DNA of 20,000 bases, from the IMG/VR virus record IMGVR_UViG_3300042507_002066; one strand, 5' to 3'. Positions 9,059 through 12,159 of the stretch are shown here, piece by piece (the stretch's first letter is position 1; every line of letters starts with the position of its first letter). Below the pieces are notes generated by a model. The model had not been told where the DNA came from. It did no database searches and saw only the letters and a program-made list of their open reading frames with translations. The position numbers and the translations under genes are program-made. This DNA comes from an uncultured virus (IMG/VR IMGVR_UViG_3300042507_002066) (Duplodnaviria > Heunggongvirae > Uroviricota > Caudoviricetes).

Positions 9059-9292
9059 TTAGTCTTCATCAGTTGCTTTATAAAAGTCTTCCATCTTCTT
9101 TTCTTGAAGAGTCTTTTGATCCCACCACTTGCGTGGATTACCACATAAGTAGCAGGAACACAGATGCGGTGTATGAGAATAGACTCCAACATCAGCATCG
9201 GTTAGATCACGAGCTCGATGTTTTGAGAAAAACTTTCGAACCCACTGCTTCTTCTTAAGTTCTTGAAATCGTCGAAAAGCTCTATCGCGCAT
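9059..9292 (-). CDS. small basic protein with CSCxxCGNPRK motif
   Basis: AGGAG SD; HLCSCYLCGNPRK suggests Zn binding. Confidence 0.8.
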   Translation of the reverse strand: MRDRAFRRFQELKKKQWVRKFFSKHRARDLTDADVGVYSHTPHLCSCYLCGNPRKWWDQKTLQEKKMEDFYKATDED

Positions 9293-9312
9293 TGTGCTCT
9301 CCTATACTATAT

Positions 9313-9508
9313 AACAGAATGTTTGGGGAAAGCTAAGATTGCTCTTAGCGGCACCTTGCCATACTCCCCATCAAAGATACACTGTTTGGATTCAAACCTT
9401 GTTCTAGTCTTGTCGATCTGCGCTTCTCACAGTGCTGACAGTGTATCCATGGTGGGGAGTACTGGAATCGAACCAGTAGTTTTGTTTTGTTGCTGTAAAC
9501 ATTCTAAA
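9313..9508 (-). ncRNA. circularly permuted tRNA-like RNA (repeat copy C)
   Basis: T-arm + ACTCCCC-A-CCA precedes GGGGAGT + D-like arm; enclosed by AGAATGTTT/AAACATTCT. Confidence 0.75.
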
Positions 9509-9511
9509 TTT

Positions 9512-9588
9512 TGGTGCCCATGGAGGGACTCGAACCCCCAACATACGCGTTCTAAGCGCGCCGACTCTACCAATTGGCCTACATGGGC
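9512..9588 (-). tRNA. tRNA-Leu(UAG), short variable loop
   Basis: GCCCATG/CATGGGC; GCGCG-CT-TAG-AA-CGCGT; A73 CCA. Confidence 0.88.
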
Positions 9589-9595
9589 ATGTAGT

Positions 9596-9670
9596 TGGTG
9601 CGGAATGAGAGGGTCGAACTCCCGACAACCTCGGTGTAAACGAGGGGCTCTACCACTGAGCTAATTCCGC
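9596..9670 (-). tRNA. tRNA-Val(UAC)
   Basis: CCTCG-TT-TAC-AC-CGAGG; CCA. Confidence 0.93.
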
Positions 9671-9954: not shown

Positions 9955-10030
9955 TGGTGGACCCTAGGAGGATCGAACTCCTGACCTCCTGCTTGCAAGG
10001 CAGGCGCTCTCCCAGCTGAGCTAAGAGCCC
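9955..10030 (-). tRNA. tRNA-Ala(UGC)
   Basis: G3:U70; CCTGC-CT-TGC-AA-GCAGG; CCA. Confidence 0.95.
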
Positions 10031-10036
10031 AAATTA

Positions 10037-10106
10037 AACAGGATCGTTTTGTCCGCTAAGACTATCATAACATTTTAGCGTTTTGGTTTGCTGAACCGAT
10101 CCTAAA
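10037..10106 (-). repeat. inter-tRNA ncRNA repeat, copy B
   Basis: Near-identical to 7496..7565 apart from the hairpin loop. Confidence 0.8.
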
Positions 10107-10109
10107 TCA

Positions 10110-10197
10110 TGGCGGAAGCGGTGAGATTCGAACTCACGGAACGTTTCCGTTCGGCAGTTTTCAAGACTGCAGGCATAAACCTCTCGCCCACGCTTCC
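10110..10197 (-). tRNA. tRNA-Ser(UGA)
   Basis: GCAGT-CT-TGA-AA-ACTGC; long variable arm; G73 CCA. Confidence 0.93.
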
Positions 10198-10198
10198 T

Positions 10199-10864
10199 TT
10201 ATTTTTGCGCTTCTGTATTTCTATATACAAACAGACCTTTGTCTATCGTATAGTTATGTTGTCTGATACCACCAAAAGTCCACAGTTCTCTTTCTTGTTC
10301 GATACTCTGTAAGTTGTTTGGTGGTTCAATTCTAGCTGTTTTCTTAATCGAAGAAATGTTTGAATTCTCTCCGTTTGATGCTTTAATATTAAATTGAACG
10401 CTTTCGATTTGAAAAAGTTTATTGCGAATTACGTTCATCATACTATCAATATATGATATTCTCTTTGTGTCGTGAAACATCATCTCTCCGCCGTTCTTTA
10501 ACAGATACCATGTCTTACGCGCAAAGTCTTCTCTAAATGTTTTCTCACCATCAACAAATATGAGATCAAAGCTTTCTTCTCTAATTTCTTTATTCATGAA
10601 ATCTTTATACCGATAGAACTCATAATTATTAGACTTATGTTCAATAAGATCTAATCTATTCTGTAGTTCTTCAATCCATTGCTGTCGAGTCTCAACGCAA
10701 GTAACTGATGCGTTAGAATCAATACTCTGAAGAAATATCATTGTCGAGCCACCAGGGCCAAATTCTAATATCTTTAGAGCAGTCTTTGACTTCTGAGCTA
10801 GTACGTCTGCGTCTTCAAGACTAAGAGCGCCAACCCATTGCATATTTTGAATATGAGTTAACAT
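10199..10864 (-). CDS. class I SAM-dependent methyltransferase (Methyltransf_24-like)
   Basis: ILEFGPGGST, DLIFVDG, MFHD; start reassigned to MLTHIQ because the longer ORF overlaps two tRNAs. Confidence 0.8.
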   Translation of the reverse strand: MLTHIQNMQWVGALSLEDADVLAQKSKTALKILEFGPGGSTMIFLQSIDSNASVTCVETRQQWIEELQNRLDLIEHKSNNYEFYRYKDFMNKEIREESFDLIFVDGEKTFREDFARKTWYLLKNGGEMMFHDTKRISYIDSMMNVIRNKLFQIESVQFNIKASNGENSNISSIKKTARIEPPNNLQSIEQERELWTFGGIRQHNYTIDKGLFVYRNTEAQK

Positions 10865-10887
10865 AGGAAACCTTTCAATAGAAAGTA

Positions 10888-11133: not shown

Positions 11134-11697
11134 TTATTTCTTTCTATTTCTTGCGCTTTCAGTCATTTTCTTTTTTGTTTCTTCTGAAAATGTTTGTCTT
11201 GCCCGCGCTTCTTTTATCTTATTTTTTGTTTCTTCTGAAAGTTTTCTTCCACTCATTGTTTTTGATATTTTATCTTTTTGATTTGATGATATTGTTTGAC
11301 CTTTGTTCCAAGCAGCGTTATCTTTATAGTGTTCTTTAAGACCTTCACTTATTTTTTTACGATGATCTACAGAGCTACTTATTTCTTTCATGTAAGAGCC
11401 GTGCTTTTTCCCTTTGAAATGAGGTCCTCCTTCTCCGCCAATTCCGGCGTTGTAAGTATCTTTTCTGGATACAAACTCTTCTGTTATCAACTCTTTCTCT
11501 TTTGTATTCATTTCTTCTTCAGTATCGAAGACAAATAGTATCTCTTTAGTAAAGTTCTCTTTACCATATTTCTTCATGGCAGACCTTATGAACTTTCCAG
11601 AGCCATAATATCTATCATTGAGATTGGTAGTTTGATGCTTTCCTATGTATATTTTTCCGTTAAGCTCATTAGTTATTTGGTATATTGTGTAAAGCAT
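11134..11697 (-). mobile_element. free-standing GIY-YIG (Seg-like) homing endonuclease with NUMOD3-like repeats
   Basis: TIYQITNELNGKIYIGKH, YYGSG, YN motifs; SEETKNKI / SEETKKKM repeats; AAGGAG SD. Confidence 0.9.
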
Positions 11698-11714
11698 TAT
11701 AATCTCCTTTTGTC

Positions 11715-11722
11715 TATTTATA
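11715..11722 (-). promoter_or_regulatory. T4-type late promoter for the endonuclease
   Basis: TATAAATA just upstream of the SD. Confidence 0.75.
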
Positions 11723-11738
11723 CAAAAAGATATTTCAT

Positions 11739-11772
11739 AGCGGGCAACTCTAACCAATTGAGCTAATCCCCC
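11739..11772 (-). pseudogene. 5' half of a tRNA gene truncated in the anticodon loop
   Basis: GGGGGAT-TA-GCTC-AATTGGTTA-GAGT-T-GCCCG-CT, followed by the endonuclease promoter region. Confidence 0.75.
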
Positions 11773-11869: not shown

Positions 11870-11947
11870 TGGTTGCGGTGGGTAGGAATCGAACCTACGT
11901 CTTCGGCTTATGAGACCGTGCTGGAACCACCTCCAGTCTACCCCGCA
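11870..11947 (-). tRNA. tRNA-Met(CAU), initiator-like, atypical
   Basis: TGCGGGG..CCACCGCA-A-CCA (bulged A); CT-CAT-AA; CTGGA/TCCAG D-stem. Confidence 0.8.
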
Positions 11948-11951
11948 AAAC

Positions 11952-12100
11952 TTCTGTTTTCAACTATGACTGTGAAAGCTTCGAACTTTCGAGCGCTCAG
12001 GGGCACGCTGGCCCTTTTGGCATTGTAAATCACGGTCAGCCAGACCACCTATGGATTCGAACCATAGTACTCCCATTTACAGTCATATGTGAAAACAGAA
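11952..12100 (-). ncRNA. long-stem RNA containing a T-arm
   Basis: TTCTGTTTTCA..TATGACTGT / ACAGTCATA..TGAAAACAGAA enclosing CTATGG-TTCGAAT-CCATAG. Confidence 0.6.
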
Positions 12101-12159
12101 TTTCTTCTGTTTCCTTTTCTAAATTGTCAAAGAGCTAGTTAGTTTCTTCTTATATTGTT

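Follow-up and report, generated by a model that had tools for sequence, protein, structure and literature searches.

An RNA of about 190 nucleotides (nt) with the parts of a transfer RNA (tRNA) in circularly permuted order is encoded in a 20,000-nt stretch of phage DNA (IMG/VR record IMGVR_UViG_3300042507_002066; the whole stretch is called the window, and coordinates are positions in it unless a locus or record is named). The gene, at 9316–9505 with all its parts on the minus strand, lies inside a phage tRNA array, is co-transcribed with that array and specifies a non-coding RNA of three layers, i.e. a scaffold helix with the motif CAGCAA, a permuted tRNA body, and a hypervariable insert between the CCA and G1 of this body. 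The body consists of a T-arm, a 7-base-pair (bp) acceptor stem ending in NCCA, a small D-hairpin whose loop contains GG, and a GNRA-capped anticodon arm. Judged from its sequence, it appears to be a non-decoding tRNA body whose nearest normal relatives are phage tRNA-Tyr genes. The reading favoured here, to which we give a probability of about 0.55, is that of a permuted tRNA-Tyr-type mimic which is carried on a scaffold, nicked by RNase P and misleads a host factor directed at tRNA(Tyr). The parts are listed below in transcript order; the counts refer to 15 distinct full-length variants, and labels of the type L159 denote loci on related viral contigs.

9497–9505 (minus): 5′ strand of the terminal (closing) helix, AGAATGTTT in DNA and AGAAUGUUU in RNA; pairs with 9316–9324 and belongs to a recurrent inter-tRNA scaffold
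9490–9496 (minus): ACAGCAA motif, single-stranded, immediately 3′ of the preceding strand; invariant in 15/15 variants
9478–9489 (minus): linker, A-rich in 15/15 variants and variable in sequence
9461–9477 (minus): T-arm ACUGG-UUCGAUU-CCAGU; the T-loop is invariant
9454–9460 (minus): 3′ strand of the acceptor stem, ACUCCCC; perfect 7-bp partner of 9363–9369
9450–9453 (minus): discriminator A and CCA; the CCA is invariant in 15/15 variants, the discriminator is A, G or U
9370–9449 (minus): inserted 80-nt domain from CCA to G1, with a basal stem (9438–9447/9376–9385), an interior that is structured and hypervariable, and the leader UCUUUGAU
9363–9369 (minus): 5′ strand of the acceptor stem, GGGGAGU; RNase P is predicted to cut at G9369
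9350–9360 (minus): D-like hairpin GGC-AAGGU-GCC, its loop containing GG; invariant in 15/15 variants
9332–9349 (minus): hairpin at the anticodon-arm position, GCTAAGA-GCAA-TCTTAGC, a 7-bp stem with a GCAA tetraloop; compensatory changes in 6/7 pairs
9325–9331 (minus): UUUCCCC linker; shared by the core family and the distant members L159 and L200
9316–9324 (minus): 3′ strand of the terminal helix, AAACATTCT in DNA and AAACAUUCU in RNA, followed by GU; pairs with 9497–9505

Fold and conservation of the permuted tRNA body

The sequence-only reading of this DNA had described a circularly permuted, anticodon-less tRNA mimic at this place. All its motifs and coordinates were found on the minus strand, base for base, and the predicted fold reproduced its helices. 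The 196-nt stretch holding the element gave a minimum free energy (MFE) of −66.4 kcal/mol as compared with −41.8 ± 3.8 kcal/mol in 200 dinucleotide shuffles (z −6.55); none of the 200 shuffles was as stable, and the MFE fold contains every helix listed above. ARAGORN called 26 tRNAs in the window, none of them at 9316–9505, and no transfer-messenger RNA (tmRNA), and Rfam searched at gathering thresholds returned only tRNAs, the tRNA model being silent at 9316–9505. Because neither ARAGORN nor the Rfam tRNA model calls anything there, the element cannot be counted as an ordinary gene for a tRNA or tmRNA.

Homologs were gathered through a downstream open reading frame (ORF) of 77 amino acids (aa; PHROG 4499, a homolog of T5.055), which gave 18 related viral loci. 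The element was found upstream of this ORF in 13 of them and was absent from four, while in one locus (L015) it was split by a GIY-YIG homing-endonuclease gene. Pattern scans supplied further contigs, bringing the total to the 15 distinct full-length variants; the scan of metagenomes, the pattern of which was too degenerate, gave at least five members (L038, L052, L115, L125 and L135). The scan of bacterial genomes gave three matches, all by chance in unrelated sequence and without the element's other parts. A blastn search of 50,697 phage records yielded no match to the whole element and likewise none to the 3′ piece. The endonuclease gene of L015 (about 215 aa, at about 445–1126) interrupts the element within the 3′ acceptor strand and is flanked by a duplicated ACTCC, and no intron features were seen at the insertion.

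Over the 15 variants, 97.5% of the 600 cells of the proposed structure pair, as against 36–47% in a control in which the partners were slid by 1–3 columns. Changes on both sides were observed in 15 of 40 pairs, and none of 500 shuffles reached the observed covariation score. Compensatory changes were found in the terminal helix (2/9 pairs, with 99.3% of cells paired), in the T-stem (2/5 pairs, CG/UA in nine variants vs UA/CG in five), in the hairpin at the anticodon-arm position (6/7 pairs) and in the basal stem of the insert (5/9 pairs). The acceptor stem, D-hairpin, T-loop and CCA do not vary, save for mismatches in three apparently decaying copies (acceptor mismatches in L021, L164 and L186). 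A covariance model built from the 15-variant alignment (R1) found two homologs on which it had not been trained, L200 at 127 bits and L159 at 74 bits. The structure of the element is under selection. The z-score, the compensatory pairs and the untrained homologs together bear out the earlier description of a permuted tRNA-like RNA without an anticodon, and answer the check by a covariance model of homologs that was proposed with it. Two additional candidate features were rejected: a 4-bp linker hairpin (GUUU/AAAC, CAUU/AAUG), present in some variants, fails in L038, L052 and L022, and a tetraloop receptor (UAUGG/GCUAAG) is not conserved in variant L022.

The interior of the insert was found in about nine unrelated versions of 65–109 nt. 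The insert is a conserved, covarying structure and not a mere spacer. Relatives with only 1–15 nt between CCA and G1 still retain NCCA. A search of the 53-kb contig for antisense targets of the hypervariable loops found none longer than 11 nt besides self-structure.

Resemblance to tRNA-Tyr and the inter-tRNA scaffold

A scan with a T-loop/acceptor/CCA string returned 30 loci, of which 15 were new and comprised eight permuted elements, four class-II tRNA-Tyr(GUA) genes (one truncated), two other tRNAs and one unclear case. The four tRNA-Tyr(GUA) genes agree with the element in the acceptor stem, in the AU at positions 8–9 and in the D-loop AAGGU, and the normal tRNA-Tyr genes of phages at L170, L174 and L180 have an acceptor identical to that of the element. 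The D-loop AAGGU is also common to the element, the L170-type tRNA-Tyr and the phage's own ordinary class-II tRNA-Tyr(GUA) at 18758–18838 (minus strand; Rfam tRNA model 33.5 bits, missed by ARAGORN). When the T-arm/acceptor piece was compared by blastn with the 50,697 deposited phage genomes, 129 records matched; the 30 matches listed of these 129 records were 18 tRNA-Tyr, four tRNA-Arg, three tRNA-Asn, one tRNA-Lys and four unannotated sequences. Set against a decoding tRNA-Tyr, the element shows a tRNA-Tyr-like acceptor, D-loop and T-arm, and has neither a cloverleaf call nor a 7-nt loop with GUA.

A GNRA loop occupies the anticodon position in 12 of the 15 variants, and 14 of the 15 have no 7-nt loop. 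Variant L024 carries A26 and, at the position of the GNRA hairpin, a 5-bp stem with the 7-nt loop CUUAUAA, in which the would-be anticodon is UAU; this stem is presumably the anticodon stem of E. coli tRNA-Tyr. The stem and loop of L024 identify the GNRA-capped hairpin as the old anticodon arm, and the terminal helix therefore stands, in tRNA order, at the position of the variable arm, unlike that of the YrlA RNAs, which stands at the position of the anticodon stem. The ends of the RNA meet where the variable arm of a class-II tRNA would emerge. We infer that two tandem tRNA-Tyr genes were the ancestors of the body. Since the RNA is rotated and without an anticodon, it probably imitates a tRNA rather than reads codons. 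The tRNA-Tyr-like body, the ends at the variable-arm position and the scaffold common to other RNAs of the array go beyond what the sequence-only reading had proposed.

The terminal helix with CAGCAA is a reusable inter-tRNA scaffold of this phage lineage. With the cargo skipped, R1 also matched short inter-tRNA spacers, and the common frame is AAAUUU-AG[AG]AU-NNNN-(N)CAGCAA ... NNNN-AU[CU]CU-GU. The outer five pairs of the scaffold helix are conserved while the inner pairs covary, position 6 being C-G in 17 and G-C in 15 copies and position 7 being G-C in 12, U-A in 13 and A-U in nine. A complementary partner was present downstream of 36 of 38 distinct scaffold 5′ motifs vs 14 of 38 in shuffled controls, and CAGCAA is retained in copies with other cargo. 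A covariance model of the scaffold (R2) found 2–5 copies per record in five related viral records, and it matched between tRNA genes of the cultured Vibrio phages nt-1 and 1.081.O (38.1, 32.1 and 23.4 bits). T5 and Limnohabitans phage DC31 gave no match to R2, and in T4 none was significant (best E 0.37). The copies of nt-1, at 96056–96132 and about 96528–96632 of its record, lie among unannotated tRNA genes, between tRNA-Asn and tRNA-Trp and between tRNA-Met and tRNA-Tyr; that of 1.081.O lies at 201057–201132 of its record. Two further copies were found in the window:

7499–7562 (minus): second scaffold copy, AGGAUCGGU-UCAGCAA ... AACGAUCCU-GU, with a small hairpin only, between tRNA-Pro and the CUA-anticodon tRNA; R1 30.3 bits, R2 92.5 bits
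10040–10103 (minus): third scaffold copy, with a small hairpin as cargo, between tRNA-Ser and tRNA-Ala; R2 97.4 bits

Both copies carry a CGCUAA/UUAGCG hairpin whose loop of 11–17 nt differs among near-identical phages, and Rfam searches on them (10025–10115 in the case of the third copy) gave no match. At other loci the cargo is tRNA-like: L172 813–967 has a permuted body, with C73-CCA and with a D-arm of canonical form, that scored 38.2 bits with the YrlA model (cut-off 69), and L217 1729–1850 has T- and D-arms only. The third copy is covered at 10037–10141 by contigs from RNA libraries of two studies, with a depth of up to about 240 in X17 and about 9 in X18, and several of them end at 10037–10038, 2–3 nt beyond the helix; this is a weak hint that the copy gives rise to an abundant discrete small RNA.

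Processing and candidate functions

No minus-strand promoter or terminator was found near the element, and the ends of the RNA must therefore arise by processing. The sequence-only reading had envisaged that cutting by RNase P and 3′ trimming would give a two-piece, CCA-ended RNA, and a product of this kind would be plausible. The acceptor and T-stems offer a stack of 7 + 5 bp, the CCA is invariant beside a variable discriminator, and position −1 is U in 11 and C in four variants, all of which would fit a substrate of RNase P; the pairings and the structured insert set out below tell against it. The two pieces cofold at −42.9 kcal/mol as compared with −29.0 kcal/mol apart. We give nicking by RNase P roughly even odds, and a trimmed, free CCA end would be less likely than the nick. 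The 3′ piece (9313–9369, minus), when folded alone, pairs GGGGAG with the UUUCCC(C) linker at 9325–9331 (−21.7 kcal/mol), possibly as an alternative conformation of the 5′ acceptor strand.

According to the favoured reading, a tandem tRNA-Tyr gene pair would have given rise to the permuted body, and the RNA, having no decoding ability, would be bound or processed as a tRNA mimic by tRNA-recognising proteins. Host RNase P would nick the precursor at G9369, and both parts would remain joined via the acceptor and terminal helices. The phage would benefit because a tRNA(Tyr)-directed host factor, e.g. a defence nuclease, would be occupied or misled. The acceptor stem, the elbow of T-loop and GG-bearing D-loop, the CCA, CAGCAA and UUUCCCC are conserved in sequence and not just in pairing, which suggests recognition by a protein. 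Phage tRNA arrays are known as counter-defence loci, and the activity demonstrated there is confined to ordinary decoding tRNAs; a conserved RNA with the shape of a tRNA but no ability to decode would, if the reading is true, point to a second strategy, mimicry instead of replacement, and would extend tRNA-mimic RNAs past the Ro60-linked YrlA family. The scaffold with its exchangeable cargo and hypervariable loops, which also occurs in cultured Vibrio phages, gives a handle on unannotated small RNAs of phages.

Several observations weigh against this reading. The best match among the phage's own tRNAs was tRNA-Tyr by a narrow margin only, with a score of 23 vs 22 for tRNA-Pro. The discriminator N73 is A in ten variants, G in four and U in one, and this variation makes uniform tyrosylation unlikely. 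Genes for partner proteins (TROVE, SmpB, RtcB, RNA_ligase and PolyA_pol) were sought in the phage records and none was found. N73 and N-1 are paired in 13 of the 15 variants (A-U in nine, G-C in three, G-U in one), with three compensatory cases, and C75-G and A76-U pair with the leader in all variants, which makes the precursor an almost unbroken hairpin. Such a hairpin disfavours RNase P and suggests that the closed form matters. Since the insert is conserved in structure, it may be kept rather than trimmed. In a sister RNA on the same scaffold (L013 444–588) the acceptor is capped by a GUAA loop and has no CCA. Of the RNA-library contigs of relatives, with a depth of 2–3, one spans the CCA end and one spans G1; these contigs neither show nor exclude processing, because they are assembled and give only partial coverage at low depth.

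Of the alternatives, the one that survives best, although we consider it unlikely, is a processing or punctuation device, in which a tRNA-shaped signal and the scaffold helix would direct cuts by RNase P and RNase E in a polycistronic transcript of tRNAs and mRNA and shape the 5′ end of the 77-aa ORF mRNA without any role in trans. The lack of a nearby promoter or terminator is consistent with such a device. The scaffold always occupies inter-tRNA spacers with AU-rich flanks, and in most loci the element precedes the ORF's ribosome-binding site by about 21 nt. However, the element also precedes a different small ORF, another structured RNA and tRNAs, and simple hairpin cargos serve as spacers elsewhere in the array, so that an elaborate and conserved tRNA body with its D-hairpin and GNRA arm would be superfluous.

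Quite improbable is a YrlA-type Y RNA (Rfam RF02553, gathering cut-off 69 bits), whose terminal helix would dock the host's Ro60 (Rsr) and whose tRNA-like module would tether a nuclease. The resemblance lies in the order of the modules: as in YrlA (Chen et al. 2014, PMC4201824), an end helix encloses a permuted tRNA-like module of T-arm, acceptor-like hairpin and D-arm. Some YrlAs are phage-encoded, and the M. smegmatis member undergoes cutting by RNase P and receives a CCA tail in vivo (PMC4201824). Sisters of the element on the same scaffold also gave sub-threshold YrlA matches (L172 813–967, 38.2 bits with the full model; L184, 34.4; L158, 26.4). The window element itself had no match to the YrlA model at E≤10 on 9150–9600, and the short-loop homolog L159 had none at E≤1. 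The Ro60-binding motif GNCGAAN0-1G was found in none of the 15 variants. The Ro60/TROVE gene (PF05731), for which a search had been suggested by the sequence-only reading, was found in none of five phage records, which include two complete related genomes and in which the controls fired; this search covers the phage side only. Published YrlAs lie at most about 4 kb from a Ro60 gene on the same strand. Unlike YrlA, the element has a genome-encoded CCA, a full anticodon-arm hairpin, a large structured insert in the acceptor loop, ends that meet at the variable-arm and not the anticodon-stem position, and a terminal helix that belongs to a distinct CAGCAA-bearing scaffold.

Equally doubtful, and put forward by analogy, is a more specific form of the favoured reading in which a non-decoding tRNA-Tyr decoy would display the acceptor stem, elbow and anticodon arm of tRNA-Tyr and would soak up or jam a nuclease of the Septu or retron type, on a scaffold that would serve the T4 superfamily generally for exchangeable RNAs with hypervariable loops. 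Septu and retron-Eco7 cleave tRNA-Tyr in the variable loop, and T5- and T6-type phages counter them with tRNA-Tyr of their own (PMC13096335 and PMC11555353). The element resembles these phage tRNAs in being a tRNA-Tyr-type RNA whose gene lies in the tRNA array of a phage and has GIY-YIG homing endonuclease genes as neighbours. What makes a role as decoy or product mimic attractive is that this tRNA-Tyr look-alike is open at the variable arm, where the Septu and retron nucleases cut. Unlike the element, the tRNAs described in these papers decode normally and their rescue requires the anticodon; for the element a link to defence is conjectural.

That the element has no function and is a decaying remnant, left when tandem tRNA-Tyr genes recombined with spacer scaffolds, is very unlikely. 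A tandem tRNA duplication would explain the gene order, and the array contains homing endonucleases that drive rearrangement (GIY-YIG at 11134–11757, with a SegB precedent in PMC13096335). The acceptor mismatches in three of 15 variants, the copy split by an endonuclease gene and the absence from four of 18 loci would likewise agree with decay. Against this stand the compensatory changes in four separate helices, the invariance of acceptor, D-hairpin, T-loop and CCA although other parts of the variants have diverged, and the whole plan kept in the distant L159 and L200.

There is only a remote chance that the element enters stalled ribosomes as a two-piece, tmRNA-like RNA without a tag. The gene order of T-arm, 3′ acceptor strand and CCA, intervening segment and 5′ acceptor strand is that of a two-piece tmRNA, the pieces of which would also be held by base pairing. 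Tag-less two-piece tmRNAs exist in jakobid mitochondria, where they retain G3:U70 and A73 (PMC3590771). The only relevant Rfam match at E≤10 was to the permuted tmRNA model (RF04321, tmRNA_permuted), at 15.1 bits (E 0.54, model positions 36–94), far under its gathering cut-off of 47, and it covers only T-arm, acceptor, CCA, a gap and the 5′ acceptor strand; this match and the lack of a YrlA match are the outcome of the Rfam check that had been suggested for the element. The sequence-only reading had further noted G3-C70 in place of G3:U70 and no space for a tag, and both hold: positions 3–70 form G-C in 15 of 15 variants, so that the alanine identity given by G3:U70 and A73 is absent, and the discriminator is not fixed. 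The 46 nt from the 5′ acceptor strand to the terminal helix are taken up by two hairpins and a 7-nt linker, and contain neither a tag frame nor pseudoknots. No SmpB gene was found in the four phage records searched.

The permuted tRNA genes of the red alga Cyanidioschyzon mature via a circular intermediate into ordinary decoding tRNAs. The element has the 3′ half upstream of the 5′ half in common with them and variant L024 has U33 and A37 in its 7-nt loop, but maturation of this type, in which the ends would be joined at the terminal helix and the action of RNase P and trimming of the 3′ end would yield a normal-order decoding tRNA, is hardly credible, since 14 of 15 variants have no 7-nt loop and 12 show a GNRA tetraloop, linkers of 7 and 19 nt greatly exceed what a tRNA core has room for, there is no anticodon and no bulge-helix-bulge at the ends, and ligase genes (RtcB, Rnl-type RNA_ligase) were found in none of four phage records, as was the CCA-enzyme family PolyA_pol in none of the phage records searched.

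The stable RNAs species 1 and 2 of T4 (rnaC and rnaD) are likewise small RNAs of unknown function inside a T4-type tRNA cluster, and rnaC ends in a T-arm-like hairpin. Unlike the element, they are not permuted, and they have no similarity to it in sequence or by model, R1 and R2 having found nothing significant in T4. As judged by these comparisons, the element matches no catalogued RNA family. No description of it was found in the literature on phage permuted tRNAs, tRNA mimics and two-piece tRNA-like RNAs, a statement that does not extend to the supplementary tables of Chen et al. 2014.

Source phage and other RNAs of the arrays

The source phage is a large lake phage of the T4 superfamily with a genome of about 218 kb. 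A complete relative of 217,966 bp holds an identical element, and the source contig amounts to 29% of such a genome. The large subunit of topoisomerase II is about 49% identical to proteins of schizoT4 Vibrio phages, and the DNA runs containing the element are lake-water metagenomes. A T5-like phage type was rejected, because only the 77-aa ORF has T5 relatives and topoisomerase II places the phage near the schizoT4 Vibrio phages.

The endonuclease gene at 11134–11757 (minus) within the tRNA array encodes a free-standing GIY-YIG/NUMOD3 homing endonuclease similar to SegE and SegB. The tRNA at 7412–7489 (minus), which has a CUA anticodon and was labelled Pyl by ARAGORN, is likely an amber-suppressor tRNA. 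Apart from tRNA-Tyr(GUA) at 18758–18838, the tRNAs found by Rfam only and missed by ARAGORN were Gly(UCC) at 5004–5073, a CAU-anticodon tRNA at 11874–11946 and His(GUG) at 2877–2947, all on the minus strand. ARAGORN called an 87-nt 'tRNA-Glu' at 12042–12128 (minus) with the anticodon at position 29, which was not supported by Rfam; a T-arm is present and the 5′ part is odd. An ORF with a methyltransferase domain (PF13578) lies at 10199–10885 (minus), and its longest GTG-started frame continues over two tRNA genes.

Other unusual RNAs were observed in related contigs. On an AT-rich 64-kb phage contig, L184 410–643 (minus), the sister that scored 34.4 bits with the YrlA model, is a permuted tRNA-Asn-like gene in the order anticodon arm (GUU), T-arm, 3′ acceptor strand, CCA, 29-nt hairpin, 5′ acceptor strand and canonical D-arm. 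A large multi-domain RNA is present at about 390–783 (minus) of L158, L163 and L166, with an acceptor capped by an ACCAU loop, two T-arms and a canonical D-arm. Another conserved element bounded by a hairpin, GTTAACGTGATG ... CATCACGTTAA, replaces the tRNA mimic in L016 and stands beside it in L014.

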